Shown: positions 4,218 to 24,376 of the stretch, in pieces | Layout: the number at the start of each line of letters is the position of its first letter | Position numbering within the stretch: position 1 is the first letter of the stretch | Assembly: GCA_001303665.1 (NCBI GenBank) | Contig: LJUF01000001.1 | Location: 1-34,088 of the forward strand | Source of the DNA: Phycisphaerae bacterium SM23_33 | GTDB lineage: Bacteria > Planctomycetota > Phycisphaerae > SM23-33 | Direction: 5' to 3' | DNA: 34,088 bases | The notes under the pieces: generated by a model | What the model saw: only the letters and a program-made list of their open reading frames with translations | Told to the model about the DNA's origin: nothing | The model's database searches: none | Translations under genes and position numbers: made by a program

Positions 4218-4221
4218 ATGT

Positions 4222-4440: not shown

Positions 4441-4466
4441 ATTATCATAGAAAGGAATGCAGTCAT

Positions 4467-5361: not shown

Positions 5362-5365
5362 CAGC

Positions 5366-5535: not shown

Positions 5536-5542
5536 CATGGAA

Positions 5543-5570
5543 AAGGGCTGGCTGAAAAAAGTCAGCCCTT
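5543..5570. terminator. Bidirectional hairpin terminator between convergent units
   Basis: aagggctg (5543-5550) pairs with cagccctt (5563-5570). On the minus strand it lies 2 nt after the connector stop and is followed by TTTTCC. On the plus strand it is followed by TATCATC. The U-tracts are short. Confidence 0.5.
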
Positions 5571-5572
5571 TA

Positions 5573-6244: not shown

Positions 6245-6256
6245 GTCGTGTCCCTC

Positions 6257-7186
6257 CTAGCGGTGCTCCCCGTACCACTGCACCGTCTTGCGCAGGCCCT
6301 CCAGCAAGGGCGTCCTGGCCTCCCACCCGATGGCGGCCTTGGCCCGGCTGGAGTCCAGCACGCGCCGGGGCTGGCCGTCCGGCCTGGACGTGTCCCATTT
6401 CACGCCGCCCTCGAAGCCCGTCGCGCCCTGGACGTAGTGGACGAGGGCGTCGATGCGCACCTCCTGCCCGCTGCCCAAATTCAGGGGCTCCGGCCTGTCG
6501 TACCTCTCGGCGGCCAGCACCAGCCCCTCGGCGGCGTCTTCGACGTACAAAAAGTCCCGTGACGGCTTGCCCGTGCCCCACACGACGATGTGGTCCTCGC
6601 CCCGCTCCCTGGCCTCGACGCACTTGCGGACGAGCGCCGGGACGACGTGGCTGGTCTCCAGGTCGAAGTTGTCGCGCGGCCCGTACAGGTTCGTCGGCAA
6701 CAGGTATATGCCGTTCATGCCATACTGCTCCCGGTACGCCTGCAATTGCACCAGGAGCATCTTCTTGGCCAGTCCGTAAGGGGCGTTGGTCGGGTCGGGG
6801 TAGCCGGACCACAACGCTTCTTCCCTCTGTTTGTACTCAGCCCGCGGATAAGCACAAACTGTCCCAACTTGGACGAACTTCTCGACGCCGTTCAGCCGGG
6901 CCTGCTCGACGAGCTGGATGCCCATGACGGCGTTCTCGTAAAACAACGTGCCGGGAGACTCTTTATTCAGCCCAATGCCACCCACTACCGCCGCCAGGTG
7001 GAACAGCACGTCCACCGGTCCCGCGTCCAGGAACATCTCAGAGACGCCCGACGGGTAACGCAGGTCGTACCGCGCCGACCGGGGCACGAAGGGCTCGCAG
7101 CCCTCCGCCTTCAGCCTGTCGCAGAGGTGGGAACCAAGGAACCCTGCCCCACCCGTCACGACGACGTTTTTGCCTCTCCAGTCCAT
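6257..7186 (-). CDS. GDP-L-fucose synthase-like NAD(P)-dependent epimerase/reductase (SDR)
   Basis: VVVTGGAGFLGSHL Rossmann motif and YGLAKK (YxxxK). NLYGPRDNFDLETSHVVPALVRK and WGTGKPSRDFLYVEDAAEG resemble Fcl/WcaG signatures. Confidence 0.7.
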   Translation of the reverse strand: MDWRGKNVVVTGGAGFLGSHLCDRLKAEGCEPFVPRSARYDLRYPSGVSEMFLDAGPVDVLFHLAAVVGGIGLNKESPGTLFYENAVMGIQLVEQARLNGVEKFVQVGTVCAYPRAEYKQREEALWSGYPDPTNAPYGLAKKMLLVQLQAYREQYGMNGIYLLPTNLYGPRDNFDLETSHVVPALVRKCVEARERGEDHIVVWGTGKPSRDFLYVEDAAEGLVLAAERYDRPEPLNLGSGQEVRIDALVHYVQGATGFEGGVKWDTSRPDGQPRRVLDSSRAKAAIGWEARTPLLEGLRKTVQWYGEHR

Positions 7187-7722
7187 CGAAATACCCCCAG
7201 CCTCGGATGCACCTCAATCGGTTTCCCCAGGAGCTCGTTGGCCGCCTGGGAAACGCCTATCTGCCCCTCGTCCTCCCCCGTGTAGTCGTGCAGGCAAACG
7301 TAGCCCTCGACGTGCGGCAGCCAGGCCAGCAGGTCGGCCTTGACTTTGTCGTAGAAGTGAGAGGCGTCGTGGAACAGCAGGCTCACCTTCGGCCCCCGCC
7401 AGTCCAGCCCCGCCCGCGTCGAGTCGCTCTTGACGATCCTGACCCATTGGCCCAGGCCCAGGCGCTCGACGTTGGCCTTGGTCGAGTCGAAGTCGGGCGT
7501 CACGTAGCCGGGGTTGGCCGGGTCGAAGTCGTCCACGCCGTAGACGACCTTGTCCGTGCCCTGGCAGGCCAGGGCCAGGGCGCACAGGCTGCGCCCCTGG
7601 CAGACGCCCAGCTCCACGACGACCGCGCCGCCCGGCAGGGCGGCCACCAGGCGCTGCAAGTATCCCAGTTCCAGGCCCATCGTCTGGCCGCTGACCGACT
7701 CCCAAGCATCAGGATGTTGCAC
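7156..7722 (-). CDS. Class I SAM-dependent methyltransferase
   Basis: VVELGVCQGRS motif I, then LLFHDASH...AWLPHVEGYVCLHDY. Paralog of 18574..19098. GTG start with GGAGGA SD. Confidence 0.65.
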   Translation of the reverse strand: MQHPDAWESVSGQTMGLELGYLQRLVAALPGGAVVVELGVCQGRSLCALALACQGTDKVVYGVDDFDPANPGYVTPDFDSTKANVERLGLGQWVRIVKSDSTRAGLDWRGPKVSLLFHDASHFYDKVKADLLAWLPHVEGYVCLHDYTGEDEGQIGVSQAANELLGKPIEVHPRLGVFRWTGEAKTSS

Positions 7723-8248
7723 CGGCCTTCCTCCAAAACGTCGCTTGCCAAGGGTAATCGTTGTACGGCCCCGGCCCGAAGAAGCAGCGTTCCCCCCAAC
7801 CGGATACGTCGAAATGCTCCAAGTAATAAGCCCGATCCGAGTTGTCCAATACCAGCCAGCCGCCCGGTTTGACCTTGGCCTTGGCGTGGCGCAGGCACGA
7901 CGGCCTGGCCCTGCCGTCCACGAAGACCAGGTCGAACGGCTCGAAATCGTCTATGGCCGAGGCGTAGCGCCTGAAATTCTTGCCCGGATAGGATTCGCTG
8001 TAATAATGCTCCGGCTTGGCGGGGTCCGTCCCCAACTCGCCGTCTTCGGGAGGGATGAAAAGAGCCGTGACGTTTTCCAGGTCGGGCTGAAGCTCCCCGT
8101 GCTCGTGCTCGACGGTGACCACCGAAGCTACCCTCTCGGCGAAATAGACGGTGCTGCCGCCGGAGCCCCACTCGAAGACGCGCATGTCCGGCGTCAAAAT
8201 GCTGTCCAAGAACTCTTGGGCGACGTAAGGAATCCAAGGAACGGCCAT
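7709..8248 (-). CDS. Class I SAM-dependent methyltransferase-like protein
   Basis: VFEWGSGGSTVYFA (motif I-like) and DLVFVDGRAR. ATG 8248 overlaps the upstream stop (TGATG). Confidence 0.55.
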   Translation of the reverse strand: MAVPWIPYVAQEFLDSILTPDMRVFEWGSGGSTVYFAERVASVVTVEHEHGELQPDLENVTALFIPPEDGELGTDPAKPEHYYSESYPGKNFRRYASAIDDFEPFDLVFVDGRARPSCLRHAKAKVKPGGWLVLDNSDRAYYLEHFDVSGWGERCFFGPGPYNDYPWQATFWRKAGATS

Positions 8249-8865
8249 CACGCCTTCTCGAAAATGTACGTCGCTTGGGGATGCTCCGTCCAATACTCCC
8301 GCCAAACCGCGCTCAACCCCCGCTCCTCGTAGAAGTTCAGCAGTTCCCGCTCATTGTGGACGTGGGTGTACGTCGGCTGGCCGGGGTAGCCGGTCGTGTC
8401 GTTGCGCACGGTCGGCCCCCCGTGGACGCGGACGCGGTGCAAGACGAGCTTGCCTGTCAGTGTTTGACATAATGCCTCACTACCCCTGGCCCAATCGTCC
8501 ATGACCTCTATGAGACTGGAGGCCAGCACCACGTCGTGTCCGGCGTAGTCGTGGCCCACCATGTCGGCCACGAAGAACTCGCGCCCTGGCCACAGCCTTC
8601 TGGCCTCGTCCACCATATGAGGCGAGAAGTCGAAACCGGTATACCGGACGCGGGGATAGCGCCGGGCCAGGACCTCCGAGTAATGTCCCACCCCGCAACC
8701 GGCGTCCAAGAGGGTCGCCGCCCCGCCCAGTCGCTCCATCGCCCTCAGGAAATACTTGAACGGCGGGTGGGTCTCCCAATCCGGCTTGGCCAGGTCCTCC
8801 AGGGCCAGCGCCCCCATCGCCTCCGCCACCCCCGCGTCCAGCCAACTCTTGTAAGGGTCTACCAT
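8248..8865 (-). CDS. Class I SAM-dependent methyltransferase (Methyltransf_11/25-like)
   Basis: LLDAGCGVGHYS motif I, followed by YTGFDFSPHMV and VVLASSLIEV. Confidence 0.75.
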   Translation of the reverse strand: MVDPYKSWLDAGVAEAMGALALEDLAKPDWETHPPFKYFLRAMERLGGAATLLDAGCGVGHYSEVLARRYPRVRYTGFDFSPHMVDEARRLWPGREFFVADMVGHDYAGHDVVLASSLIEVMDDWARGSEALCQTLTGKLVLHRVRVHGGPTVRNDTTGYPGQPTYTHVHNERELLNFYEERGLSAVWREYWTEHPQATYIFEKA

Positions 8866-9695
8866 TTCGACTGCGCCCCCCTGATGGCCGCCACGTAAGG
8901 CTTATAAACGTGCTCGCGCTGCCAACCGCTCACCTCGTAGGTGCTGGGGTACATCTGATTCTCTCCCTGGAAACCGTGATAGTGCCACCACAGGAGCGGC
9001 TCGCCGCCCACGCGGACCTGGCCGTCCTCGACGGAATACCTGCGGTGCTCCGCATTCCACGGGGCGCGGTTGGCCCCTGGGTGCTGAATGGCGTGGACGT
9101 GCCACCGCTTCTCAAGAACGCTGTCCCAGTATTTCTGGTCGCAGAATCTCTCTGGGTGGTCGGGCTCGTGCCGGAGGTAGCACCATTCTAGGCAGAGCCG
9201 CCGCCACTCCCCGATGCAGGCCAGCCCGTCGTCGTCTCTCTTGGCGTGGACCAGGCCGACGTTGTACTTGCCGTTGCGCTCGAACCCCTTCAGCCTGGGC
9301 GGGAAGTCGTGCGGCGTGATGGCCAGGGAACGGCCGCCTATCTCTTGGAAAACCGGCTCCGGATCGGCGAAGAACATGATGTCGGCGTCCAGGTAGTTGA
9401 CGTGGTCCACCGGGCCGTTCCTGAGCACGAACAGCATCCAGCCGGGCGTGCAAGTCCAGTAGAACTCCCGCAGGCTCCTGGTGGCTCGCGCGGCCCGCAG
9501 CGCGTCGTCCTCGAAGCTGGCCATGCCGATGATGCTGACGTTCGGCAAGGCCAACTTGACCAGGCCGTTCACGACGGCGTCGTCGAGGGCCAGGACCCAC
9601 AGGTGGTATTCCGGGCAATGGCGCTCCAGCGACTCCCACAGAACATAGCCTTTGTGACGGTAGGCCCAGTCGAAGTAAGTGCAAAAGTACCTCAA
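8859..9695 (-). CDS. Glycosyltransferase, GT-A fold (GT8-like, DXD)
   Basis: YLDADIMFF DXD motif, YNVGLV, and CDQKYW. The likely start is TTG 9695 (GAGGAG-N6) overlapping the upstream stop as TTGA. The ORF track maximum is 9773. Confidence 0.6.
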   Translation of the reverse strand: MRYFCTYFDWAYRHKGYVLWESLERHCPEYHLWVLALDDAVVNGLVKLALPNVSIIGMASFEDDALRAARATRSLREFYWTCTPGWMLFVLRNGPVDHVNYLDADIMFFADPEPVFQEIGGRSLAITPHDFPPRLKGFERNGKYNVGLVHAKRDDDGLACIGEWRRLCLEWCYLRHEPDHPERFCDQKYWDSVLEKRWHVHAIQHPGANRAPWNAEHRRYSVEDGQVRVGGEPLLWWHYHGFQGENQMYPSTYEVSGWQREHVYKPYVAAIRGAQSKW

Positions 9696-10321
9696 CCTAA
9701 ACTCCTCGCGTACTCTAAATCGCCTGGGGTATTGACGTTCACCGCATGGCCCTGGGTGAGAACAAGCTGGCAACCTATAAACCCGAATGTCGCACTGAGC
9801 TCAGTGAATTTTGAAATCGTAGGAATTCTATCTAGCGTCGGCCTGGATAGGTGAGCTACCCCACCAAACGAAAAACCTCTTGGGTCTGGAGGTGTTGCGA
9901 CACTGGCCCTGACCGCAACACCCTCTTCAAAATACAGGCGTGTCCCCCGCCCATCGTATGGTTTCACAACGGCCACAGAATCTGGCTTGTCCAGAACGCA
10001 CTGCACTACTTCATTACTGATGAACATGTCAGCATAGGTCATTACTAAACTCTTCTCAAGTGGGAACATCTGTGATGCAAGATGAAGTGAGTACAGGCTG
10101 CCTGTCTCAAAATATTGACTGTTAAACACGTACGCCGCCCTAACCGCTTGCATGACCATCGTGGCTCGATAGCCCACGACAATAACTACATCAAGGCTAT
10201 TTCCCTTGAGAATGCGAATCTGTCTCTCAAGTATGGATTCATCCCCGACCTTCAACAACGACTTGGGCAGGGGGAATCCCATGCGTTCCCCCTTGCCAGC
10301 GGCAAGCACGATGGCCTTCAT
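9692..10321 (-). CDS. Nucleotidyltransferase (LicC/PntC/sugar-1-P NTP-transferase class)
   Basis: MKAIVLAAGKGERMGFPLPKSLL is the GXGXR signature of the NTP_transferase family. ATG 10321 forms an ATGA overlap with the upstream stop. About 45% GC. Confidence 0.7.
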   Translation of the reverse strand: MKAIVLAAGKGERMGFPLPKSLLKVGDESILERQIRILKGNSLDVVIVVGYRATMVMQAVRAAYVFNSQYFETGSLYSLHLASQMFPLEKSLVMTYADMFISNEVVQCVLDKPDSVAVVKPYDGRGTRLYFEEGVAVRASVATPPDPRGFSFGGVAHLSRPTLDRIPTISKFTELSATFGFIGCQLVLTQGHAVNVNTPGDLEYARSLG

Positions 10322-11037
10322 CTGTGCGACTTGCACCTCCTGCAAATGTCAAGGAATCTGTCGCCAACCGAAAGCCGGTTGTACGTCTCCCGAACCCGTG
10401 AAGAAAACAGAATCTCCTCAAGCGTCCCGTCAGTGAGGCTCCCGAAAGTGTGGCGGTACTTCCAATCCATGCAGCAAAGTCCGACCTCGGCGTCCCGCGT
10501 GATGACGACTTGGCCCAGCGGTGCCCGACACGGAACGTTGCGATCCACATACGGTGCCGCATAAATCTTCAACCTGTCGTCCAAGCCCCCGCGATCCATG
10601 TAAGTGACGCCCGGCCAATCCCTGGCCTCCACGTCGCCGTACAGAGTCACGACGATGTGGTTCACCCCCGCCTCCATAAGCTCTTGGGCCAGACCCCGTG
10701 TCAGGTAGTGCCCGTTAGTCTCGATAATGACCTGTGACTCCGGGCAACAGTCTTTAGCCTTGCCTATGAACAGAAACAGGCGCGGGTCAATCAGGGGCTC
10801 GTTGTATTGGTTGAAATAAATCTTGCCGCCATAGCCGTACTTCCCCAGCGTCTTAAGAACGCCATATACCGTTTCCATAGAGATGATCTTGGGCTCCCTG
10901 ACCCGCCAGGTCGAAGCCATTTCCAGATGCAACGGACATTTCTTGTGAAGCCACGAATACTGGCACAGGTTCGACAGCTCTATGGCGACGCCGGTCGTGA
11001 ACTCGAAGGGATTCACAGAACCCTCGCCCTGAGCCAT
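10318..11037 (-). CDS. Radical SAM/SPASM-like protein with non-canonical N-terminal Cys motif
   Basis: Radical-SAM-like core blocks (IELSNLC, YNEPLIDP, IIETNGHYL, IVVTLYG) and a C-terminal SPASM/twitch-like Cys pattern (CRAPLG...GLCC...CRRC). Where CxxxCxxC is expected it has only CQYSWLHKKC. Confidence 0.5.
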   Translation of the reverse strand: MAQGEGSVNPFEFTTGVAIELSNLCQYSWLHKKCPLHLEMASTWRVREPKIISMETVYGVLKTLGKYGYGGKIYFNQYNEPLIDPRLFLFIGKAKDCCPESQVIIETNGHYLTRGLAQELMEAGVNHIVVTLYGDVEARDWPGVTYMDRGGLDDRLKIYAAPYVDRNVPCRAPLGQVVITRDAEVGLCCMDWKYRHTFGSLTDGTLEEILFSSRVRETYNRLSVGDRFLDICRRCKSHR

Positions 11038-11756
11038 CGGCTCGTCAAGTCAAGCGACAGGACTACGAACAAGATGATGCAGATGATCATGCTCGTCTTG
11101 CCATAGTCGAACAATCCCATAGAGGCTGTCAATTCCAGCCCCAATCCACCCGCTCCGGCCACGCCCAGCAACGTGGCCTGCCGGAAACTGGACTCGAAAC
11201 GGTAGAGCAGGAAGGACAACGCGGCGTTGGCTTGCGCTGGCAGAAAGATGTATACGTAGCCTTGAAACTTGTTCGCGCCGTCTATGGCGGCGGCGTCCAT
11301 GATCTCCGGCTCCGTCGCTTCCAGATTCTCGGACAGTAGCTTCCCAAGCACGCCGCCGGAATAAATCCACACGCCCATTATCCCGGCGAGCGAGCCGAGC
11401 CCGACGGCGGCCACGAAAAGGATGCCCAGGATCATGGCGGGGATACTGCGCATGGCAAGCAGCATGGTCCGCCCGCACAGGTACACAATCCAGTTCTGCG
11501 TCATGTTCCAACTGGCCGCCCATGCCAGTGGGATTGCCGAGAGAAAACCCAGCGTCGTGCCGAACAGCGCGATCTTCGCCGTCTGCCAAAGCGCCGGCAG
11601 GAGACCGGGCAACGCCCGGAAATCGGGGGGCCACAGCTTGGACAGATACCGCAGTATCCTCGGCATCCCCGTGCATATCTCGAACGCATCCCCGCTGAAT
11701 ATCATGGCGGCAAGGAGCAAGATAGTAAGCCATGAAAGGAATCGGGCCGCGGTCAT
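11013..11756 (-). CDS. phnE: PhnE-like ABC transporter permease (phosphonate/phosphite family)
   Basis: Multi-TM protein with RSIPAMILGILFVAAVGLGSLAGIMG, GKLLSENLEA and AAAIDGANKF blocks resembling PhnE. ATGA overlap with phnD. Confidence 0.65.
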   Translation of the reverse strand: MTAARFLSWLTILLLAAMIFSGDAFEICTGMPRILRYLSKLWPPDFRALPGLLPALWQTAKIALFGTTLGFLSAIPLAWAASWNMTQNWIVYLCGRTMLLAMRSIPAMILGILFVAAVGLGSLAGIMGVWIYSGGVLGKLLSENLEATEPEIMDAAAIDGANKFQGYVYIFLPAQANAALSFLLYRFESSFRQATLLGVAGAGGLGLELTASMGLFDYGKTSMIICIILFVVLSLDLTSRWLRARVL

Positions 11757-12601
11757 TCAACCAAGCCCTCTTCCATCAGGACGCGGACGTAGTCGTAGTC
11801 GGAATCTGCCCCTGGCACGAACCCCTTGACTTGGTCGCACCCGGCGAACGCTTCATCTGAAAGGCTGAGCAATGCATTTCTAACACGTTCTTTCAGTCTG
11901 GAATCCATGTCCGCCCTGACTCCCCAGCAATTCATGGGAATGGGCGGCGTGGTCGCCAAAATCACAAAGTCCTCGCCCGGCACCCCCGCCCCCTGGCTGA
12001 CGGCCAGATTGGTCCGCCAGTCGTTCGTGCCGCCAGCGTCCACGCTGCCCGCGACGACAGCCTCCAGCACGGCTGGGTGGCTACCGAGAAACCCATACTC
12101 GGCCAAGTCATCCAACTCAATGCCATTCTCCTTCATGTTGACCACGTTGGACAGGTAACCAGACGTGGAGCCGATGTCGGGGAAGGCCATCGTCTTACCC
12201 TTGAGTTGGTTGAATGTGAACGGTTCGTCCCAGATACCGGGGCGACCGATGATGATGCCGTGACACTCGGCGATGCCCTCCGGGTTGATCTCTCTCACCA
12301 AGGGCTCAACGCCGATCTGCTCATGAGCCTGGATATAGGGCATCCCACCCAGGCGGGCCATGTCCGCCGTGCCGTTGGCCAGTGCCTCGACCACGGCTGC
12401 GTATTCCGTCGTAGTCTGCATCTCTACGTCCACGCCTAGTTTTTCCTCCAGCTCTGCGATGACGCCGCCATAAGCGGCTATGGCCGTAGCCGAATCAATG
12501 CCCGGCGCGGGCGAGAACACAATACGAAGCGTCTCTCTCCGCGTTGGCGCACATGCGGCCAACACCAGGACCAGCAATACAAAGGATTTCCTAAAATTCA
12601 T
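11753..12601 (-). CDS. phnD: PhnD-like substrate-binding lipoprotein (phosphonate/phosphite ABC family)
   Basis: Lipobox signal (LVLAAC), RIVFSP, YAAVVEALANGTADMARLG, and PDIGSTSGYL, all typical of the Phosphonate-bd family. Confidence 0.65.
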   Translation of the reverse strand: MNFRKSFVLLVLVLAACAPTRRETLRIVFSPAPGIDSATAIAAYGGVIAELEEKLGVDVEMQTTTEYAAVVEALANGTADMARLGGMPYIQAHEQIGVEPLVREINPEGIAECHGIIIGRPGIWDEPFTFNQLKGKTMAFPDIGSTSGYLSNVVNMKENGIELDDLAEYGFLGSHPAVLEAVVAGSVDAGGTNDWRTNLAVSQGAGVPGEDFVILATTPPIPMNCWGVRADMDSRLKERVRNALLSLSDEAFAGCDQVKGFVPGADSDYDYVRVLMEEGLVE

Positions 12602-13229
12602 AACCGAACCTCCTTATCAATTCCCCGTCCATCCGGGCCACCAACGCCTTGCTTTCTTCGTTGTAATACTCTTGGTATGGATGCACTGCTTCCCAACGTG
12701 TGCGCTTTAAGTTGGGATCCGGGTGCCTGTCAACCCTGGCAGTGCCGACACTTCTTATAATTTGATCCGCTTCCTCCGCTGTGACCAAGTCTGGCACGAT
12801 GCCGACTTTGGCAAAGACCGGGACGATACCGCTATACCAGTCTTCCATACGCACGATGTAATCCGCCTTGTCGGCCTGCATCATTTCCCAATAGATGGTC
12901 AGCGACACACACGAGCCGTGGCGTTTTTGCGAAACCAATTTCACATATTCATTGAAGTCCCCCTGAAAATGCGTGTAATCAACGACGCGAACCCACGACC
13001 AGAAGGCGACGTACCATGACCACGGATTGCGTATGAAGGCGATGGCTGGCGGGACCAGCAACCCGCGACTGGTGTACGTCTCAGCTAAATGCTTGTAAGC
13101 CAAATGTTTTGCCTTCACAGCCCCTATCGGCTTTAATCCATGCTTTCGCAACTCTCTCAGGATGCGATCAAAAGCAGTTCCGCCGCATCGCGTCACATGA
13201 AGGTGTATCAGTCTATCGTGCGTGGGCAT
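12591..13229 (-). CDS. Sulfotransferase family protein (paralog 1)
   Basis: HLHVTRCGGTAF (5'-PSB-like P-loop) and FIRNPWSWYVAFW (3'-PB-like RNPxxRxxS class). ATG 13229 aligns with the paralog's start (MPTHDRL versus MLTDRL). C-terminal YYNEES...IRRFGYEF is shared with the paralog. Confidence 0.65.
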   Translation of the reverse strand: MPTHDRLIHLHVTRCGGTAFDRILRELRKHGLKPIGAVKAKHLAYKHLAETYTSRGLLVPPAIAFIRNPWSWYVAFWSWVRVVDYTHFQGDFNEYVKLVSQKRHGSCVSLTIYWEMMQADKADYIVRMEDWYSGIVPVFAKVGIVPDLVTAEEADQIIRSVGTARVDRHPDPNLKRTRWEAVHPYQEYYNEESKALVARMDGELIRRFGYEF

Positions 13230-13251
13230 TTCGGCGTTGAGGTCGTTGTAT

Positions 13252-15067: not shown

Positions 15068-15069
15068 AA

Positions 15070-15984: not shown

Positions 15985-16190
15985 AGCGCTCTCTTTTTTA
16001 CATCCTTCCGTGGCCTTAGCTTGAGACATTCCGGGCAAGTCACGTTGTGCCAATAGGCGCTGTGCGCCACCCGTGTCCCCGGCAACCCGCACGCAGTGTT
16101 CCAATTGAAGCCCTTCAGAGGTTGCCGCGATGCGGGCCAGACCCAAAAATGAATTACACCCTTCTCCCCAGCACGTTCGCCAAAACCCAT
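15981..16190 (-). CDS. Small Cys/His protein (possible zinc ribbon), unknown function
   Basis: 69 aa with protein-like composition (HFWVWPASRQPLKGFNWNTACGLPGTRVAHSAYWHNVTCPECLK). ATG start. It exactly fills the gap between the two GT47-like genes. Lower GC. Confidence 0.5.
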   Translation of the reverse strand: MGFGERAGEKGVIHFWVWPASRQPLKGFNWNTACGLPGTRVAHSAYWHNVTCPECLKLRPRKDVKKRAL

Positions 16191-16199
16191 CTCGGCCCC

Positions 16200-17087
16200 C
16201 TATAACATTTCCTCCAAATACCTCAACACCATGTCGTCCCACCTGGCCGGGGCCAGCCAGTCCGCCCAGGCCCGCCGCGCCCTGTGCGCCATTTCCCGCA
16301 TACAGGACTGCGGGCGGCAACGTTCGTTGATGGCCATGATCTCCCCGGCCACAGACGCGGCCCTGGCCTCCGGCACTTGAAAGGAGCAGGCATCCCAGTC
16401 CACGTATTCGGGCATGGGCAGCGCGTAGTCGTCGGCCAAGACGACGGGGATGCGGCCCGCGCTCATAGCCTCGAACAGCCGGTAAGAGTGCTGGCCCGCG
16501 CCCCTGGGGGCCAGCACCAGCCTGGACTGCTTCAGCGCGTCTATGAAAATCTGCCTGCGCTGGTCCCCCTCCGGCGTGCCCTCGTAGCGGCCCCAGTGCC
16601 TATTGACGGTGTCCAGGTAGCAGTTCAGTCCGGGGCAGGCCCTCAGCGAGTCCAGGCAGCGCCGCCGGACGCCCAGCGGGTCATGGTCCAGGCCGACGAA
16701 GCAGACGTGGTACAAAAGCTGCTCGTAGTCCATCCCGGCCAGCCGCCCGAAGTCGTCCACCGCCGGGGGCCAAGGGACCACGTTGGGGTCGCGGCGGCGC
16801 TTGTCCACCGACTGCCTGAAGACGACGGCCTGCGTCCCGATAGGGGCGTCCTCGTCCGAGTGCATCCACAGGACGTGTCGGCGCTCGTGCTTCTCCCAGG
16901 TCGGCAGCCTGGCCAGTGTGGGCAGCACGCCTCCCACTCGCTGGGGGTGCCTGCGCTCCACGTCGCCCAGCTCGACCAGGACCACGAAAGCGTCGGCCTC
17001 GGCGGGGTTCTCCGTATATTCGAGCGTGGTCGGCCTGGCCACGGGTCGGGCGGGAACGTCCAGTTCGGTATAGGCGTAGACTTTCAC
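16200..17087 (-). CDS. Exostosin-like glycosyltransferase (GT47-like), paralog B
   Basis: LVLAPRGAGQHSYRLFEAMSAGRIPVVL, with HVCFVG as in paralog A (DVCFVG). Confidence 0.65.
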   Translation of the reverse strand: MKVYAYTELDVPARPVARPTTLEYTENPAEADAFVVLVELGDVERRHPQRVGGVLPTLARLPTWEKHERRHVLWMHSDEDAPIGTQAVVFRQSVDKRRRDPNVVPWPPAVDDFGRLAGMDYEQLLYHVCFVGLDHDPLGVRRRCLDSLRACPGLNCYLDTVNRHWGRYEGTPEGDQRRQIFIDALKQSRLVLAPRGAGQHSYRLFEAMSAGRIPVVLADDYALPMPEYVDWDACSFQVPEARAASVAGEIMAINERCRPQSCMREMAHRARRAWADWLAPARWDDMVLRYLEEML

Positions 17088-17416
17088 GTGTAATCGTCCT
17101 CGTCAAAGTGCTCCGACGCCAGCACGAGGCACAGGGCGTCGGGGCTGAAGTTCTCCAATGTGCGGCGGGCCGTCGGCTTGACATAAAGCCCCGTCCGGGG
17201 CGAATCCAGCCGGTGGCGCTCCTCGTCCACCACCACGTCGAGGCGGCCCCGCAAGGCCACCATCACCATCCGGCAGGTCTTCATGGCGTGCCCGCCCCGC
17301 GTCTCGCCGGGCGGGACGTTTTCGATCCAGAACGCCCGCTTGACGTCGAAGGGGAGCTCGCACACCGTCAGGCCGCCCCGGTGGTCGGGATAGGTCATGA
17401 ATTCAATGATCGGCAA
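17084..17416 (-). CDS. FdtA/WxcM-like cupin (NDP-4-keto-6-deoxyhexose 3,4-ketoisomerase family)
   Basis: DHRGGLTVCELPFDVKRAFWI...TRGGHAMK...LYVKP...ALCLVLASEHFDEDDY follows the FdtA pattern, except that HAM replaces the usual HAH. TTG 17416 has GGAGG-N6. The alternative start is ATG 17398. Confidence 0.6.
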   Translation of the reverse strand: MPIIEFMTYPDHRGGLTVCELPFDVKRAFWIENVPPGETRGGHAMKTCRMVMVALRGRLDVVVDEERHRLDSPRTGLYVKPTARRTLENFSPDALCLVLASEHFDEDDYT

Positions 17417-18275
17417 GCTCGGCCTCCAATTTCCGCCTCAACTGCGGCAGCCTCTTCTCTATGGCCGGGGGGTGCGGGCGGTCGAATGGCCCGGTGCGGC
17501 ACGGCCCCCGCGTCTCCGGCAAGAAGTCGTGGCAGCCGTTCCACCGGTCCTCTATGGCCCGCCTCTCGGCGTCGCTTCCCCGGACCCACGGGAGATACAC
17601 TTGCTCGAAATAGCCGGGGATGCACCTTCCGGGGGCGACAGACTCCCGGTAGTATTCCGTCTTGGCCTTGACCTGCGACGGCCACACGTAAGAGTAATGC
17701 GGCATCCCGGCGAAGAAGGCCAGGTGGTCGTGCTCCCGCCAGGGGCGATGTTCCGGCCCGGAGGAAAGGACCGTCGGCGGGCGATGAGTCTGCCAGTTCG
17801 CGCCGGGATACCACCGCTGTACCCGGTGGAACTCGAACCCCTGCTCGAAGGAGCCCTCGCCGAAAATCCTGTCGAACCCGCCGAAGAAAGCCCAACTCCT
17901 GAAGCTGATCGAGTCCCAACGCCCCGTCTCCAAGACCTCGATCACCTTCTCGATGGTCTCCGGGTAATGGACCTCGTCCGAGTCGACGTGGAAGACGAAG
18001 TCCGCGTCGGGGCGGATCAGGGCTCCGTAGGCGCGGCACATCTCGTCTTTCTCCGACCATGGGCCATGGATCATCTGAATCTTCCCGTCCGGGTCGGGGA
18101 AGTCCCTGATGGTCTCCACCGTGCCGTCCGTGGACTCGGTGAACCCTTTTTGGACGAAATAGCCGACCGGCCCCTCGGTGACGACGATCTGCGACGCATA
18201 GGGGTAGATGGTTTCCAGGCAGGCGTCGAGAACGTAATTGCCGTTGAAGACGATCATGCCGAAGGCGATGTTCAT
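17403..18275 (-). CDS. Glycosyltransferase, GT-A fold (GT2-like)
   Basis: N-terminal MNIAFGMIVFNGNYVLDACLETI and HVDSDEV (DXD) are typical of family-2-like transferases. Confidence 0.55.
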   Translation of the reverse strand: MNIAFGMIVFNGNYVLDACLETIYPYASQIVVTEGPVGYFVQKGFTESTDGTVETIRDFPDPDGKIQMIHGPWSEKDEMCRAYGALIRPDADFVFHVDSDEVHYPETIEKVIEVLETGRWDSISFRSWAFFGGFDRIFGEGSFEQGFEFHRVQRWYPGANWQTHRPPTVLSSGPEHRPWREHDHLAFFAGMPHYSYVWPSQVKAKTEYYRESVAPGRCIPGYFEQVYLPWVRGSDAERRAIEDRWNGCHDFLPETRGPCRTGPFDRPHPPAIEKRLPQLRRKLEAELADH

Positions 18276-18296
18276 TTTACTTCCCCATCTCTTGCC

Positions 18297-18581
18297 CTAC
18301 TGCCTCGCCCTAAAAGCGCTGAACAATGCAGACCAACGCCCCCGTTCACACACTTGACGAATTTGCCAGTATCTCGCCTCGGCATTGTCCCATTCACAAC
18401 TTGTCTCCAAAAACTGATTATAGTGCCAATTTTTGCACTTATCGCACCATTCATAGGTGGCCCTGCAATCAAGCAGTTGCCTGATACCCGATCCGAAATA
18501 CCACGTCCAGCCACGCGCTACCGTCCCGGTTAGAAATAATGCGACACTAATCACAAACATCGCCAAAGGTATGCTAGACAC
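18297..18581 (-). CDS. Small membrane-anchored Cys-rich protein, unknown function
   Basis: N-terminal TM helix (IPLAMFVISVALFLTGTV), then CRATYEWCDKCKNWHYNQFLETSCEW...VCERGRW. About 48% GC. GTG 18581 or ATG 18560. Confidence 0.45.
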   Translation of the reverse strand: MSSIPLAMFVISVALFLTGTVARGWTWYFGSGIRQLLDCRATYEWCDKCKNWHYNQFLETSCEWDNAEARYWQIRQVCERGRWSALFSAFRARQ

Positions 18582-19098
18582 AATACACCCCCGTCAGCCA
18601 GTGGACCTTCCAGGGCTCCCCCAGCAAGGCCCTGGCCGCCGCCTGCACCCCCGGAACGTGGGGGTTGTTAAAGTCATGCAGGCAGACGTAACCTTCCACA
18701 TGGGGCAGCCAGGCCTCGATGTCGGCCCGCACGCTGCCCTCGTCGTGGGCGGCGTCTATGAAGAGCAAGCCGACCTTGCCCCCTTGCCAGTCCCGACCCG
18801 TCTCGGCGGAATCGCCCTCAACGACCACGCAGCGTTCCTGCAGGCCTATCGCCGCGATGTTCTGCTCCAAGACTTCCCGGCTGGGCGCGACCCAACCCGG
18901 ATGGTCCGGGGTGAAGTTGTCCACCAGGTAGACGGTGCCCTTGCAAACGCTGGCCATGGCCAGGCCCGACCGGCCCCGGTTGGTCCCCAACTCGACGACG
19001 ATGGCGCCGTCAGGAAGAGTCTCAACCAATTCGATGAGCAATTCGATGTCCTGGTCCGGCGTCTCGCCCTCGATGTCCCGCCAGTCCACTACCAGCAC
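18574..19098 (-). CDS. Class I SAM-dependent methyltransferase (paralog of 7156..7722)
   Basis: IVVELGTNRGRS, LLFIDAAH, and EAWLPHVEGYVCLHDF. In-frame GTG at 19098 or 19089 (TAGTG overlap). The upstream part of the track ORF is junk. Confidence 0.65.
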   Translation of the reverse strand: MLVVDWRDIEGETPDQDIELLIELVETLPDGAIVVELGTNRGRSGLAMASVCKGTVYLVDNFTPDHPGWVAPSREVLEQNIAAIGLQERCVVVEGDSAETGRDWQGGKVGLLFIDAAHDEGSVRADIEAWLPHVEGYVCLHDFNNPHVPGVQAAARALLGEPWKVHWLTGVYCV

Positions 19099-19820
19099 CC
19101 CCGTATCCGCTCTTTCAGCATGTCGTCCAGGAGGGCGAGGATCTCGTGGCCCTCGCCCAACCTGCCCGCGAGGATGCCCCTGGAACCGTCTCGGTAGACG
19201 CCGTAGCGGGTGACATTCAGGTAGGGCGCGGGGAAGTCCCGCACGACGCCCAGCATCCGCTTGCCCGACCGCCTGGCCCGCTCCGTGCCTTTCCTCTCGA
19301 CGGTCCAGTGATCCTCGCCTTCCACTAGCAGGCTGATCAAATATTCCACGTCCCACATGCCGGGCTGCAAGGACAGAAGATATTCCGCCGTGGCCTTGTC
19401 GTACTCCCCGACCAGCGGCCTGTCCCCGATCTGCTGCCACTCCTGCCACTGCCTGCCGTCCAGCAGGTCGTCGGTCCAGGGCCGCAGGTTGATGTAGCCG
19501 ATGGACTCGTCGTCCCGCATCATGGCCGCCAATTCGACCATCAGCGCGTTGTCTACCGGGTCCAGCAGATAATAGTCGTCCAGGAGCAGCACGACGGTCC
19601 GGGCGTCCGTCTGCCGCAGGTAAGCCAGCACGTTGCTGGCCCACAGCTTGTCCGGGCCGTAGAACCAGAATTTGTAGGGCAAGCCATCGAGCCAGGGCTG
19701 CTCCGTGCCGGCCACGATCTCCAATTCCCAGGGTCTCCCCGGCCAGCCCTCCTCCAAGAAGTGGCAGAATCCCGGTATCAATTTGCTGTACAGGTCACAG
19801 GTGACGCAGACGACTTTCAC
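19089..19820 (-). CDS. Hypothetical protein, possible GT-A-fold transferase
   Basis: Begins MKVVCVTCDLY like the neighbouring GTs, with VVLLLDDYYLLD as a possible DXD region. GTG 19820 forms a GTGA overlap with the upstream stop. Confidence 0.4.
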   Translation of the reverse strand: MKVVCVTCDLYSKLIPGFCHFLEEGWPGRPWELEIVAGTEQPWLDGLPYKFWFYGPDKLWASNVLAYLRQTDARTVVLLLDDYYLLDPVDNALMVELAAMMRDDESIGYINLRPWTDDLLDGRQWQEWQQIGDRPLVGEYDKATAEYLLSLQPGMWDVEYLISLLVEGEDHWTVERKGTERARRSGKRMLGVVRDFPAPYLNVTRYGVYRDGSRGILAGRLGEGHEILALLDDMLKERIRGCW

Positions 19821-20443
19821 GCACACAAGACGAAGCCCCCCAAAGCATAGGACAAATAGAGGATGCTCGGCTCAGGCACCTGCCCCGGCACCTCGGCCAG
19901 AGCCCTCTCCTTGGCGCAGGGCAGCCAGCGGCTGTCGTCGTCGGCCTTGACCCAGTACCGTTCTTTCAGGACGGCGTAACCCTCCAGCAACCCCGGCAGC
20001 CTGTCCGGGCCGTAGACGCGGTGGTATTCCCCCACGACGGCGTCCACCCCGACGGGTACGGTCAGCAACATGATCCCGTCGCCGTCGAGCCGCATCCAAC
20101 CTCTCAGCTTCCGCATGGCCTTCAGGTCGCCGTCCGGGTCGAGCGGGTCGCCGTAGCGCCCCAGGCCCACGTGCTCGACGGTCGAAACGTTCAGGATGTA
20201 GTCGAACGGCTCGTCGAACTCGACGGCCATGACGTCCCGCCGGACGTACCGCACGCCCTGGGGAGGCGCAATGTCCTCCAGCCCGACGGCCACGACGGAG
20301 TAGCCCTTGCTCGCGGCGTCTGCGGACAGGTAAAAGCCCTCCATCGGCCCGAAGTCCAGCACGCGCCTGCCCGCGCCGCACGGGGGCAGGTTCTCCATGG
20401 CAAAGCCCCACTCGATCCCCCTGTCGCCCGCAAGCGTCTTCAT
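19817..20443 (-). CDS. DUF268-type SAM-dependent methyltransferase-like protein
   Basis: RVLDFGP and NVSTVEHVGLGRYGDPLDPDGDLKAM match my recollection of the DUF268 signature. ATGA overlap at 20440-20443. Confidence 0.6.
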   Translation of the reverse strand: MKTLAGDRGIEWGFAMENLPPCGAGRRVLDFGPMEGFYLSADAASKGYSVVAVGLEDIAPPQGVRYVRRDVMAVEFDEPFDYILNVSTVEHVGLGRYGDPLDPDGDLKAMRKLRGWMRLDGDGIMLLTVPVGVDAVVGEYHRVYGPDRLPGLLEGYAVLKERYWVKADDDSRWLPCAKERALAEVPGQVPEPSILYLSYALGGFVLCA

Positions 20444-21237
20444 AAGAGCGGCCCCCCTCTGGCCCTGCGGTACAGCTCTTCGTCGTCCAGCGTCCACTCA
20501 GCGTCCGATATGTGGGCGCGCGGGTACTTGGCGTGCTCCTTGAACAGGTCCTCGTTGTGCTTGTAGTCGCCCCATTCTTCCTGGTGTCCGCTCCTGGCCT
20601 CGTAGCCGTGGCGGGCGTCCCTCTCGTGCTCCTGGTGGATGGCGGCCACGACCAACGTGGCGTCCACCACGGGGACGCGCTGCGCGGCGTAGGACAGAGC
20701 CCAGTTGTCCCAAAACGGCACGCCCACGTAGAAGTTCAGCATGGCATCGAACAGGTCGCCGTTGCGGTAGGCGAAATAGTCCATCGCGCCCAGGCTGTGC
20801 CGCTCCCCGGTGCGGCAGGCGAACTCGCACAGCTTCTCTTCCCATCCGGGGCCGAAAGACCATTCCTTGTCGAGCCGTATGTCTATCCGCCCGCCCACCA
20901 TGAGGAAGTCGCCGAGCTCCCGCGCGCAGCGGACGACGGCTTCCGGCAGGTGCAGGAACATCATGTCGGCGTTGGTCCAGCACAGCAGGCCGTTGGAGGC
21001 CCTCGCCCTGGCCTTGGCGAAGACGTCGCTCAGGACCGGCCTGCCCCTGGGACTGACGGCCACGCCGGGGACGTGGACGCAGCCGAACTCCCCGGCGGCC
21101 TCGGCCACTCCGGGATCGTCGCCCAACAAGATGATCTCGGGGCGCGGCGTGAGGCGCGCCCAGGTGTTGAGCGCGTTCCTCTGGATAACGTTCCGGTAGC
21201 CCTCGAAGGCGCAGGGAACGGAGAACAAAGTTATCAT
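20440..21237 (-). CDS. Hypothetical protein, probable GT-A-fold glycosyltransferase
   Basis: MITLFSVPCAFEGYRNVIQRNALNTW, ILLGDD, and WTNADMMF (DXD-like). ATGA overlap at 21234-21237. Confidence 0.45.
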   Translation of the reverse strand: MITLFSVPCAFEGYRNVIQRNALNTWARLTPRPEIILLGDDPGVAEAAGEFGCVHVPGVAVSPRGRPVLSDVFAKARARASNGLLCWTNADMMFLHLPEAVVRCARELGDFLMVGGRIDIRLDKEWSFGPGWEEKLCEFACRTGERHSLGAMDYFAYRNGDLFDAMLNFYVGVPFWDNWALSYAAQRVPVVDATLVVAAIHQEHERDARHGYEARSGHQEEWGDYKHNEDLFKEHAKYPRAHISDAEWTLDDEELYRRARGGPLL

Positions 21238-21851
21238 TGTCGCGCCTTTCCGAACCGGTGCTCCACCACCGTGCCCCGATGGCTGTTGAAGTCCGGCCCC
21301 AGCAGCCAGACCTTGACGGGATGCTTCTCCAACGCCCTCAGCAGCGCCCCCTGGTCGTGCAGCCTGAAGCGTTCCCACTCCCGCCGCCACTCGGCGAAAA
21401 GCCGCTCCGTGCCGTCCGTGCGCCGGAACCACATCACGCCGGTGTTGAGCATCAGCGGCCAACCGTCGGCCAGTTCGTCCTGGGTGACGCGCCGCTCTTC
21501 CTCGGTCAGGCTGTGCAGGGGTTGGGATTGCCCCTCGCTGGGCACGATGACCAGCTCCCACCCGTCGTCCAGGATGCGGAATCCCGCGTCCAACCTGCCG
21601 CGCACGCGGGTGTCGGCGTCCAGGTAAAGCGTCCGCTCGAACGGCGACAGGGGCAGCAGGTTGACCTTGGCCCACCGGCCTGGCATCCCCCGGTCGGGCC
21701 AGCTCACGCGCCGCGCGCCTTCCACCTCGTCGCCGACGACGGCGACCGGCCAGTCGTGGTGCCGCCGCAGGGACTCGATGCTCTCCGTCGCCTCCCCGAC
21801 GGCGCGGGCTCCGTATGCGACGTACAGGACGCCCTCACGGGAACCCGCCAT
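21234..21851 (-). CDS. Glycosyltransferase, GT8-like nucleotide-diphospho-sugar transferase
   Basis: VLYVAYG, TLYLDADT (DXD), and MLNTGVMWF. Confidence 0.6.
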   Translation of the reverse strand: MAGSREGVLYVAYGARAVGEATESIESLRRHHDWPVAVVGDEVEGARRVSWPDRGMPGRWAKVNLLPLSPFERTLYLDADTRVRGRLDAGFRILDDGWELVIVPSEGQSQPLHSLTEEERRVTQDELADGWPLMLNTGVMWFRRTDGTERLFAEWRREWERFRLHDQGALLRALEKHPVKVWLLGPDFNSHRGTVVEHRFGKARQ

Positions 21852-22524
21852 GCGGCATCCACCGGACTTGCAGACTTTGCCAGTTGGACGGCAACGCCTG
21901 GATCACCGCCGCGCTCCGGTACAGCGACCTCAGGAAGCCGTGCCGCTCGTCGTTGCCGGCGGCGATCTCTTTGGCCCACAAGCCGACGAGCCTTTTCGTG
22001 GCGGAGGTGCGCCGCAGCCACACCAGGCGGGGATCGTAGACCGGCGTCCGCAGGTCCCTCACCACCTGCACGGTCCTGTCCCGCTCGTCCTCGCTGCCCA
22101 CGTCGGCTGCCGTCGTCGTCTCGCCCGCCAGCATGGCCAGCACTTCCCACCCCTCGATCCTGGATTCGCGGCAGCGGGACAGCCCCGACTCGACCGCCCG
22201 CGGGGTCACCGGCAGGGACGGTTCCCATATCACGGTGAAGTCGAACGGCAGCCGGAGGTTGCCGTCAACGAATGCCAGCTTGGTGGTCAGGTCCCCGAAC
22301 TCCGACAGTTCGGGGTGCCCTCCCCTCACCAACACACCGCTGTGGGCGTAGTCCACCGAGACGATCCGCCTGTCGGGTCGCGGAATCTCGACCCGGCCCT
22401 GCGCCAGCCACACCCGCGCTTGTTGCTTGCCGACTTGAATCCAGTCGCCGGGGTAAGCGATCTCCTGTATGCCTCTCACGTCGTATGTCAGCGTGGACAG
22501 GACGCGGACCCACTTTTTGGCCAT
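21835..22524 (-). CDS. Hypothetical protein (first gene of the island)
   Basis: 229 aa with protein-like composition and an ATG start. I recognise no motif. Confidence 0.55.
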   Translation of the reverse strand: MAKKWVRVLSTLTYDVRGIQEIAYPGDWIQVGKQQARVWLAQGRVEIPRPDRRIVSVDYAHSGVLVRGGHPELSEFGDLTTKLAFVDGNLRLPFDFTVIWEPSLPVTPRAVESGLSRCRESRIEGWEVLAMLAGETTTAADVGSEDERDRTVQVVRDLRTPVYDPRLVWLRRTSATKRLVGLWAKEIAAGNDERHGFLRSLYRSAAVIQALPSNWQSLQVRWMPHGGFP

Positions 22525-22534
22525 TTCCTACCCG

Positions 22535-22564
22535 GAGGGGGCAACCCCGCGGGGCCGCCCCCTC
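22535..22564 (-). other. GC-rich 13-bp hairpin at the capsid-module / island boundary
   Basis: Minus-strand GAGGGGGCGGCCC-CGCG-GGGTTGCCCCCTC. It contains two G-U pairs that would be A-C mismatches in the plus-strand RNA. No U-tract. It sits 10 nt upstream of the 22524 start. Confidence 0.5.
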
Positions 22565-22575
22565 TCCTCACGATA

Positions 22576-23037: not shown

Positions 23038-23051
23038 CTGTTCACCTCCTG

Positions 23052-24374: not shown

Positions 24375-24376
24375 TT

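Follow-up and report, generated by a model that had tools for sequence, protein, structure and literature searches.

To our knowledge, virion glycosylation in phages has so far been known from a few mycobacteriophages employing two to four enzymes, among them the Corndog-type (cluster O) and Che8-type (cluster F1) phages reportedly described by Freeman et al. in 2023. Here, we analysed a 16-kb island of ~24 genes located between the head and neck genes of an uncultured tailed phage, at positions 6257–22524 of a 34,088-nucleotide (nt) stretch of DNA (contig LJUF01000001.1 of assembly GCA_001303665.1, Phycisphaerae bacterium SM23_33), which we refer to as the window. The island is the largest instance seen of a lineage-wide, hypervariable locus at a fixed site, and we lean towards reading this locus as one devoted to virion glycosylation, giving the particle a strain-specific glycan coat. 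Island genes are named by the lower of their two coordinates.

Passages in the mycobacteriophage literature describe cytoplasmic glycosylation of capsid and tail tube in clusters O and F1 (PMC11600133, PMC11256854, PMC12619734), the acceptor sites being placed at the C-termini of capsid or tail tube subunits in the relevant part of PMC12619734; the responsible genes lie at the portal–protease site in cluster O and at the genome end in F1 (layout in PMC4351075). The window resembles these systems in combining phage glycosyltransferases with O-methyltransferase functions and, as in cluster O, in placing them inside the virion structural operon. In contrast to the ~2–4 mycobacteriophage genes, however, the island comprises ~24 genes over 16 kb, occupies the site between jellyroll and adaptor genes and is known here from its genes alone. 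It also goes beyond them in encoding sulfotransferases, sugar-nucleotide enzymes, a nucleotidyltransferase and PhnD/PhnE, in its core of a glycosyltransferase family 8 (GT8)-like enzyme and a paralogue without the DxD motif, and in its hypervariability across a lineage.

In chloroviruses, the capsid protein is glycosylated cytoplasmically by transferases that the virus itself encodes, together with a methyltransferase domain and a guanosine diphosphate (GDP)-fucose pathway (PMC5408694). As in these and other giant viruses (PBCV-1 Vp54; PMC5408694, PMC9614988, PMC10117803), the island combines soluble virus-encoded transferases with a GDP-fucose enzyme and methyltransferases, which in the giant viruses act on a jellyroll capsid. 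The glycan genes of these viruses are clade-specific, just as the island cargo varies, and PBCV-1 A64R is a structural neighbour of the modelled core protein 21835, the similarity being structural and weak (template modelling (TM) score about 0.38–0.43). Giant viruses, in turn, infect eukaryotic hosts and carry mostly scattered genes in genomes of at least 300 kb, whereas here the virus is a small tailed phage and the genes are packed into a compact, operon-like block.

In the glycosylation of serine-rich-repeat adhesins, the GtfA–GtfB pair joins a catalytic transferase to an inactive paralogue that binds the protein acceptor. The island core is analogous in that a transferase gene lies beside a paralogue without catalytic residues, with a different fold (GT-B there, GT-A here). 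Its presumptive catalytic member, 21234, is similar to glycogenin and the Skp1 alpha-galactosyltransferase in its DxD motif in YLDAD context, a downstream His and a profile match of E 1.6e-6, and differs from glycogenin in that 21234-type proteins are shorter (~200 amino acids (aa)), match over 42–66 residues and remain below the Pfam threshold for GT8. O-antigen and capsule loci likewise hold variable content between conserved flanks, including GT2, GT47-like, Fcl, FdtA, methyltransferase and sulfotransferase genes; unlike them, the island is flanked by phage head and neck genes, and no priming transferase, Wzx/Wzy/Wzz or ATP-binding cassette (ABC) exporter was found in the window. Finally, viral phnD and phnE have already been reported as phosphorus auxiliary metabolic genes (AMGs; PMC11310336), to which the island compares in carrying PhnD and PhnE on a phage without the PhnC ATPase; here, in contrast, they are embedded in a glycan island beside a LicC-like nucleotidyltransferase, an arrangement found again in a related island (L033).

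A hypervariable locus between head and neck genes

Capsid-protein searches of viral, genome and metagenome collections yielded ~100 related loci with capsids 40–77% identical. Where the downstream sequence of a relative is long enough to tell, in at least 42 cases the capsid gene is followed by the gene of a jellyroll head protein, a member of the 21835 family, a GT8-like gene, a set of variable genes and then the head–tail adaptor gene. The capsid-to-adaptor distance is 538 bp in L089 (jellyroll gene only), 1,234 bp in L012 (jellyroll-like gene and one transferase-like open reading frame (ORF)), 5.8–9.2 kb in eight complete islands, more than 10 kb in six partial ones and 16.8 kb in the window, and a cultured Bradyrhizobium phage carries capsid gene, jellyroll homologue and neck genes without an island. 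An initial annotation of this DNA had described the island as spliced into the head-to-neck junction. With at least 42 occupied junctions on the one side and L089, L012 and the Bradyrhizobium phage, island-less or with a single transferase-like ORF, on the other, the island does interrupt a junction that is contiguous in relatives, but it is not a one-off, being an instance of a lineage-wide locus with a two-gene core.

The cargo of the locus turns over extensively. When the genes of 23 islands were clustered crudely, 79 of the 97 resulting families were confined to a single locus, and 15 of the 21 crude window ORFs had no homologue in the 22 other islands; the clustering merged the core and Methyltransf_24 (MT24) families via over-long ORFs in GC-rich DNA, and we used its singleton counts only. 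The L007 island, for instance, encodes a GT4+GT8 fusion, an MT24+TylF double methyltransferase and a Glyco_trans_1_2 protein, and the L033 island encodes a methyltransferase and a nucleotidyltransferase–PhnD–PhnE cassette (L033 positions 14638–17790), the NTP_transf_3, PhnD and PhnE proteins of which are 29%, 39% and 43% identical to those of the window. The ORF next to this cassette has an IIPAAG nucleotidyltransferase-like N-terminus. L033 also holds two non-enzyme-looking ORFs without Pfam match between its 21835-family and GT8-like genes (11331–12860), one with repeated GDVDV/ANDGVDIG motifs and the other LamG/concanavalin-like by eye, which may represent head fibres or decorations. HNH genes sit between the capsid and jellyroll genes of both L007 (8724–9485) and L033 (9465–10097), and the head–neck region looks like a hot spot for insertions in general. 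The lineage occurs in sediment, groundwater and wetland metagenomes and has no close cultured relative (best capsid matches 32–34% identical); megablast of the window's structural half against deposited phages returned no match. Binning is uninformative on the host, since related contigs were binned with Anaerolineae, Phycisphaerae, Gammaproteobacteria and Parcubacteria.

Neither island junction is chimeric, the adaptor side being ~100% identical in contigs of at least six assemblies and the capsid side being present in contigs of six samples. Window positions 659–16244 are 99.8–100% identical to contigs of GCA_001302675.1, three ENA assemblies and two JGI metagenomes, and another six contigs, assembled from JGI, ENA and Logan samples, cover positions 14057–25788; because these contigs tile the two ranges, both junctions and the whole island have been assembled independently. 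Contig L110 (JGI 3300027888) is 100% identical to the window over 14057–22750, that is, over 8.7 kb of the island, and all of its 136 differences fall within 22750–23336, comprising the N-terminal two-thirds of the jellyroll protein and the 3' end of the capsid gene. Judging from this alignment, L110 joins an unchanged island to another head allele, with a recombination breakpoint at the island edge. Contigs L111 and L112 differ from the window in 25000–25800 only, and L114 differs mainly in 20500–21000.

Analysis of GC content at third codon positions (GC3) by frame, together with ORF calling, bore out the ~24 co-directional ORFs described between head and neck genes: positions 6257–22524 hold 24 minus-strand ORFs, 22 of them solid and two small and uncertain. 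The first of the latter (15981–16190, 69 aa) contains Cys, and an alternative gene call extends one of the GT47 genes (GT47a) across it. The second (18297–18581, 94 aa) is a low-GC ORF (GC 0.49) without family match that fills an apparent 298-nt gap (18276–18573) and encodes one transmembrane helix and a Cys-rich tail. Intergenic gaps in the island are confined to 51, 38, 21, 12, 9 and 2 nt, and neighbouring ORFs overlap by 1–31 nt. The start/stop overlaps listed in the initial annotation were all found (ATGA at 10318, 11753, 20440 and 21234; GTGA at 15981 and 19817; TTGA at 9692; TGATG at 8248) and suggest translational coupling. No internal terminator had been noticed in that annotation; terminator-like hairpins within 5000–24900 are at chance level (20 seen versus 15.1 ± 5.1 expected), as are promoter-like matches inside the island. 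We infer that the island is co-transcribed with the capsid gene. Rfam and transfer RNA scans of the window returned no match.

The two-gene core and its cargo

The 21835 and 21234 families are each found in at least 40 relatives, and a second 21234-type paralogue is often present. The second core gene (21234–21851, minus strand) encodes a putative retaining, GT8-like glycosyltransferase in which the DxD motif is intact; we propose it as the initiating transferase. Residues K62, D78, D80 and H198 do not vary across 47 homologues, and in the PDB the family profile picks up glycogenin-2 (E 1.6e-6), glycogenin-1 and the Skp1 alpha-galactosyltransferase; the single sequence is sub-threshold in Pfam (Nucleotid_trans E 4e-4, GT8 E 0.05). 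The DxD motif and downstream His characteristic of GT8 are thus present in 21234, the GT-A fold being modelled for its paralogue 21835 only.

The first core gene (21835–22524, minus strand) encodes a protein without match in Pfam, NCBIfam or PHROGs. A word-indexed search found four homologues; repeating the search with an alignment built from the metagenome loci raised the number to 111, all of them unnamed. The structural model of 21835 (predicted local distance difference test (pLDDT) score 92) shows a GT-A-fold domain following an extra N-terminal beta domain of ~50 residues. Foldseek placed the model within the GT-A fold (BFVD E 2e-5), with WrtF, GtrB and PBCV-1 A64R as PDB neighbours, and found the N-terminal domain to resemble the C-terminal domain of lambda gpFI and DUF7210. 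Aligning the 21835 and 21234 families with hhalign gave a probability of 98.9% (E 1e-17), with TVIWEPS in the 21835 family where the 21234 family has YLDADT and no conserved acidic residue left there. By this profile–profile comparison, the 21835 family is paralogous to the GT8-like family but has no DxD motif, and the invariant module therefore appears to consist of a catalytic GT8-like enzyme and a DxD-less paralogue with an added domain. By analogy with the GtfA–GtfB pair, we infer that 21835 would act as a non-catalytic acceptor-binding or docking partner.

In total, six glycosyltransferase-type proteins of the island are supported by profile or structure (21835, 21234, 8859, 15070, 16200 and 17403). 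Of the ~7 glycosyltransferases initially annotated, the two GT47 and one GT2-like proteins were confirmed by profiles and the two GT8-like ones were supported by family-level comparisons only, whereas the two weak GT-A candidates 19089 and 20440 did not. The second GT8-like protein (8859–9695, minus strand) aligns to the 21234 family in the DxD region (hhalign probability 81%, E 1e-5) with YLDAD in the same columns; it has no Pfam match, and a single-sequence PDB search returned nothing useful. Two exostosin/GT47-like paralogues, 32% identical, are encoded at 16200–17087 (PF03016 E 3e-17) and 15070–15984 (PF03016 E 4e-10), both on the minus strand. The GT2-like protein (17403–18275, minus strand) matches PF00535 weakly (E 7e-6, 26.6 bits versus a cut-off of 23.3) and phrog_13126, a beta-1,4-glycosyltransferase (E 6e-6), the sole PHROGs match among ten island proteins scanned. 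The 265-aa product of 20440 (20440–21237, minus strand; same gene call in the independent contig L110) was assigned to no family, with no match in Pfam, NCBIfam, PHROGs, plasmids (tblastn) or by hhalign. The same applies to the 245-aa product of 19089 (19089–19826, minus strand), which has one homologue, in the L060 island, and no match in Pfam, PHROGs, plasmid tblastn or hhalign. The GT-A idea was dropped for both, as hhalign against the two core families showed no similarity.

Four of the five S-adenosylmethionine (SAM) methyltransferases originally proposed were recovered, all on the minus strand: the MT24 proteins 7156 (7156–7722; PF13578 E 7e-16) and 18574 (18574–19089; PF13578 E 1e-14; 171 aa in L110), the class I methyltransferase 8248 (8248–8865; Methyltransf_25/11/12) and the DUF268-type protein 19817 (19817–20443; PF03269 E 1e-21; homologue in the L078 island). 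The fifth, 7709 (7709–8248, minus strand), fell below the cut-off (PF13578 E 9e-4) and is a possible, weakly MT24-like methyltransferase with homologues in the L071, L072 and L076 islands. The pairing of 7156 and 18574 as paralogues proved correct, the proteins being 48% identical and both containing AWLPHVEGYVCLHD. Pfam also confirmed the two sugar-nucleotide enzymes: 6257 (6257–7186, minus strand) is a GDP-L-fucose-synthase-like epimerase/reductase of the short-chain dehydrogenase/reductase (SDR) type (PF01370 E 4e-55; PDB 7LL6 E 1.6e-67) with an NCBIfam Fcl score of 268 bits, below the cut-off of 500, and 17084 (17084–17416, minus strand) is an FdtA/WxcM-like cupin of the sugar-nucleotide 3,4-ketoisomerase type (PF05523 E 7e-30). 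Scanning Pfam up to E 10 gave no real match for 8859, 12591, 13252, 13895, 19089, 20440 and 21835.

The remaining island genes form a sub-block (9692–15067) encoding a nucleotidyltransferase, a SPASM protein, PhnE, PhnD, two sulfotransferases and a protein with a PP-loop motif. Its GC content of 0.51–0.60, compared with 0.61–0.70 for the rest of the island, points to layered acquisition, and by this measure the sub-block looks like a more recent arrival. The nucleotidyltransferase call for its first gene (9692–10321, minus strand) is supported by PF12804 NTP_transf_3 (E 2e-17); the product appears to be a LicC-like nucleotidyl (cytidylyl) transferase, with the CTP:phosphocholine cytidylyltransferase 1JYK as best PDB match (E 1.4e-8). 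The product of 10318 (10318–11037, minus strand) had been annotated as radical-SAM/SPASM-like. The SPASM part was retained (E 9e-9), but the radical-SAM part was not (E 3e-4, 21.6 bits versus a cut-off of 29.5), the core being degenerate and the sequence showing no CxxxCxxC cluster motif. PhnE (11013–11756, minus strand), an ABC-importer permease with at least four transmembrane segments, and PhnD (11753–12601, minus strand), a phosphonate/phosphite-binding lipoprotein, both pass their NCBIfam cut-offs as initially called (TIGR01097, 220 versus 216.7 bits; TIGR01098). PhnD also matches PF12974 (E 1.5e-53), has 5JVB and PtxB as best PDB matches and begins with a lipoprotein-type signal sequence with a LAAC lipobox. 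No PhnC or other ABC ATPase was found among the window ORFs scanned or in the L033 cassette, so the phage importer is incomplete and would need a host ATPase.

The two divergent Sulfotransfer_2-like proteins 12591 (12591–13271) and 13252 (13252–13905), both on the minus strand, have no Pfam match themselves, and a single-sequence PDB search with 12591 returned nothing useful. Family-level searches nevertheless bore out their annotation as paralogous sulfotransferases. Exhaustive HMMER searching retrieved 159 relatives of 12591, of which 19 out of 100 match PF03567 Sulfotransfer_2 (best E 2.5e-20), and the family profile matches SULT4A1 in the PDB (E 5e-9). The proteins are 34% identical and have R-x-GG and RNPW-WYV motifs in common; at the family level, both the profile and motifs of the 5'-phosphosulfate-binding (5'-PSB) and 3'-phosphate-binding (3'-PB) type point to sulfotransferases dependent on 3'-phosphoadenosine-5'-phosphosulfate (PAPS). 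The last protein of the sub-block (13895–15067, minus strand, 390 aa) lost its AsnB-like label, since it has an SGGYDS PP-loop-like motif only and matched nothing in Pfam, NCBIfam, PHROGs, the PDB or plasmids.

Proposed virion glycosylation and competing readings

If the locus glycosylates the virion, the island would be transcribed together with the head genes, and the core pair would initiate glycan synthesis on a protein exposed at the virion surface, for which the jellyroll protein and/or the major capsid protein are candidates. In this step, 21835 would bind the acceptor and 21234 would transfer the first sugar in the cytoplasm. The two GT47 proteins, the GT2-like protein and the second GT8-like enzyme would then add sugars, while the Fcl-like reductase and the FdtA-like isomerase would divert GDP- and deoxythymidine diphosphate (dTDP)-keto-deoxy-sugars from the host, four to five SAM methyltransferases would O-methylate the glycan, and the two sulfotransferases would add sulfate from PAPS. 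Finally, the genes in 9692–15067, presumably acquired later, may serve to attach a head group of phospho or phosphono type, or may constitute a separate phosphorus-uptake passenger. Glycan composition is thus proposed to be set by the variable cargo, here with deoxy-sugars, several O-methylations and sulfation.

Several observations fit this cytoplasmic assembly on a head-surface protein: the fixed site in the head module, the adjacency of the core to capsid and jellyroll genes over deep divergence, the soluble enzymes, the lack of lipid-carrier functions and the protein-directed GT8s as nearest solved relatives. As the initial annotation had observed, no Wzx/Wzy/Wzz, priming transferase or exporter is encoded among the window ORFs scanned by profiles. 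The island enzymes are all predicted to be soluble, with PhnE as the only multi-pass membrane protein. That annotation had argued for a cytoplasmic acceptor. The envelope proteins PhnD and PhnE speak against a programme that is purely cytoplasmic and strictly late for the block as a whole.

A number of points weigh against virion glycosylation. The capsid protein ends in the family-conserved TTTVSPFVILG tail, where no Ser/Thr-rich extension is obvious, and 21234 can be considered analogous but not homologous to the mycobacteriophage enzymes, since tblastn against 50,697 deposited phage genomes gave no match and hence no BLAST-level relative. Moreover, the GT8 assignment of 21234 rests on the short profile match mentioned above, and no function could be assigned to three of the island ORFs. 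Lipid-linked intermediates made by the host are also possible substrates of soluble transferases, and the contig is without distal tail, lysis and replication genes, so that the negative result for priming transferase and flippase covers the window only. PhnD, a lipoprotein, and PhnE, a permease, act in the envelope of a living cell, and they fit a phosphorus AMG (PMC11310336) or pre-late expression better than virion decoration. For these two proteins, linkage to the nucleotidyltransferase suggests that a phospho or phosphono head group is taken up and activated with CMP, an idea based on LicC as the closest relative, on phosphite and phosphonate binders as nearest to PhnD and on the repetition of the linkage in L033; an equally simple reading is that they may be phosphorus-uptake AMGs or passengers.

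Serotype-converting phage glycosyltransferases are well known (reviewed in PMC12619734), and the island enzymes might likewise remodel the host envelope, modifying lipopolysaccharide, capsule, S-layer glycan or exopolysaccharide via host lipid-linked intermediates and so blocking superinfection, changing the receptor or altering infected-cell properties, a role that we regard as rather unlikely. PhnD and PhnE do show that part of the block acts in the living-cell envelope, and partner genes could lie elsewhere in the genome, given the incomplete contig. The GT47, GT2, Fcl, FdtA and sulfotransferase families are, furthermore, the usual content of surface-polysaccharide loci. Yet the island encodes no priming transferase, flippase, polymerase, ligase, exporter or membrane-anchored transferase, and in at least 42 relatives, with capsids as little as 40% identical, it keeps one position in the head module and the same two first genes. 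Conversion modules usually lie near integrase or attachment (att) sites and have their own promoters, whereas the island shows no more promoter-like sites than expected by chance. It is distinctly unlikely that the core pair alone is head-related and that the rest are unrelated passengers, AMGs and morons without a common product, collected at a mixed hot spot. The extreme cargo turnover (15 of 21 crude window ORFs unmatched in 22 other islands), the distinct GC content of 9692–15067 (0.51–0.60 versus 0.61–0.70), the HNH insertions at the same site in relatives, the recombination breakpoint at the island edge and the report of viral phnD/phnE as phosphorus AMGs (PMC11310336) would all suit such a collection, but the cargo is biased towards sugar enzymes here and in both other islands scanned with Pfam (L007 and L033), the start/stop overlaps suggest translational coupling, and nucleotidyltransferase, PhnD and PhnE occur together again in a second island.

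Decoration of modified phage DNA bases by these transferases and tailoring enzymes, as a protection against restriction, is very improbable. Viral glycosyltransferases with diverse DNA glycans are known (Pyle 2024, as cited in a passage of PMC12619734) and the phage replication module lies outside the window; however, the window was not found to encode a base hydroxymethylase, a member of a DNA glycosyltransferase family or a nucleotide kinase, the locus lies among head genes and not beside those for replication, and the solved proteins closest to the core enzyme are protein-directed GT8s. Binning placed the contig in a bacterial metagenome-assembled genome (Phycisphaerae bacterium SM23_33), which might point to an assembly chimera or to a bacterial polysaccharide locus beside a prophage remnant, but there is practically no chance of such an artefact: near-identical contigs from independent samples and assemblers tile the junctions and the island, and dozens of related contigs, including IMG/VR viral contigs, share the architecture with structural genes on both sides. 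The tiling and the shared architecture refute it.

Returning to virion glycosylation, a more specific version of this reading is possible but doubtful, namely that the locus is a hypervariable, recombining serotype locus that places strain-specific methylated, sulfated and possibly phospho- or phosphono-decorated glycans on the jellyroll protein, with the dead GT8 paralogue docking the capsid. If true, virion surface glycans would be under diversifying selection like bacterial O-antigens. Under the virion-glycosylation reading in general, a whole environmental phage lineage would keep a dedicated, fast-diversifying glycan locus in its head module. This would raise the question of what selects variable phage glycans outside an animal immune system, with grazers, adsorption to particles or non-host cells, host lectin-like defences and particle stability as candidates. 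The two-gene core of GT8-like enzyme and DxD-less paralogue represents a compact, testable unit. For AMG surveys, it would follow that PhnD/PhnE, sulfotransferase and 'polysaccharide' genes on viral contigs may be part of virion-decoration loci and not of host metabolism. Distinctive features of the locus are its size, its sulfation capacity, its core of enzyme and pseudo-enzyme and, above all, its character as a hypervariable locus of a widespread uncultured lineage of HK97-like tailed phages.

Flanking genes and further features of the window

Directly upstream of the island lies the gene of the 153-aa jellyroll head protein (22576–23037, minus strand), a member of the phrog_28483 family (E 2e-18). 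It follows the capsid gene in every relative, including the island-less L089 and the Bradyrhizobium and Ralstonia phages. Its AlphaFold2 model (pLDDT 94.6) retrieved viral jellyrolls in Foldseek, among them the cement protein of the Bordetella phage BPP-1 (3j4u_H, TM 0.50/0.54). Because a confident viral-jellyroll model has this cement protein as a neighbour, the protein is probably an exposed decoration or cement protein rather than an island gene product, and it is a candidate glycan acceptor. Thr or Ser is kept at jellyroll positions 86 and 105 in 92% and 81% of island-bearing relatives, respectively, whereas the three divergent island-less relatives have A/A/T at position 86 and A/G/D at position 105. 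Thr86 and Thr105 are a weak lead to acceptor residues and were not used as evidence, as phylogeny confounds the comparison with only three divergent island-less sequences.

The flanks were as initially annotated, with profile matches to Phage_capsid and the S78 protease upstream and to the adaptor downstream. Almost every window gene is on the minus strand. Read in the direction of transcription, the order is an HNH gene (33059–33823), a putative terminase gene assigned by position only (31608–33053; no Pfam match), the portal gene (29087–31516; 809 aa), small ORFs, the protease, capsid and jellyroll genes, the island, the adaptor gene, a plus-strand cassette and a gp10-like gene (3601–3987), after which more neck and tail genes continue past the left edge of the window. 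The major capsid protein (23052–24380, minus strand) has an HK97 fold with an N-terminal delta domain (PF05065 Phage_capsid, E 6e-47). The 600-aa protease–scaffold fusion (24377–26179; Pfam match) combines an S78 domain with a zinc-ribbon-like CxxC...CxxC segment and, towards the C-terminus, a long part resembling a scaffold protein, and the C-terminal region of the portal matches head-morphogenesis (minor head protein) PHROGs. The gp6-like head–tail adaptor (5573–6244, minus strand; PF05135; phrog_442 E 2e-13) is 33–67% identical among relatives.

Between portal and protease genes, positions 26180–29087 form a 2.9-kb low-GC stretch of small ORFs that may be a second moron region, at the site where cluster O mycobacteriophages have their glycosylation genes, and sigma-70-like promoter matches in 24000–34088 exceed chance (15 versus 4.1 ± 1.9 expected). 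The plus-strand cassette (4467–5570, GC 0.53–0.55) breaks the minus-strand virion genes between the adaptor and gp10-like genes and comprises an HNH-like ORF (4467–4967) and a phrog_4652 ORF (4777–5361, E 3e-52), with a hairpin at 5550–5567 between the convergent genes. An intergenic, GC-rich inverted repeat, GGCTGGCC...GGCCAGCC, is located at 1985–2035, where assemblies break or are scaffolded (run of Ns in L001, contig end in L002). An apparent 12-nt indel at 2000–2035 between otherwise identical contigs was traced to the N-run scaffold gap of L001 at this GC-rich hairpin.

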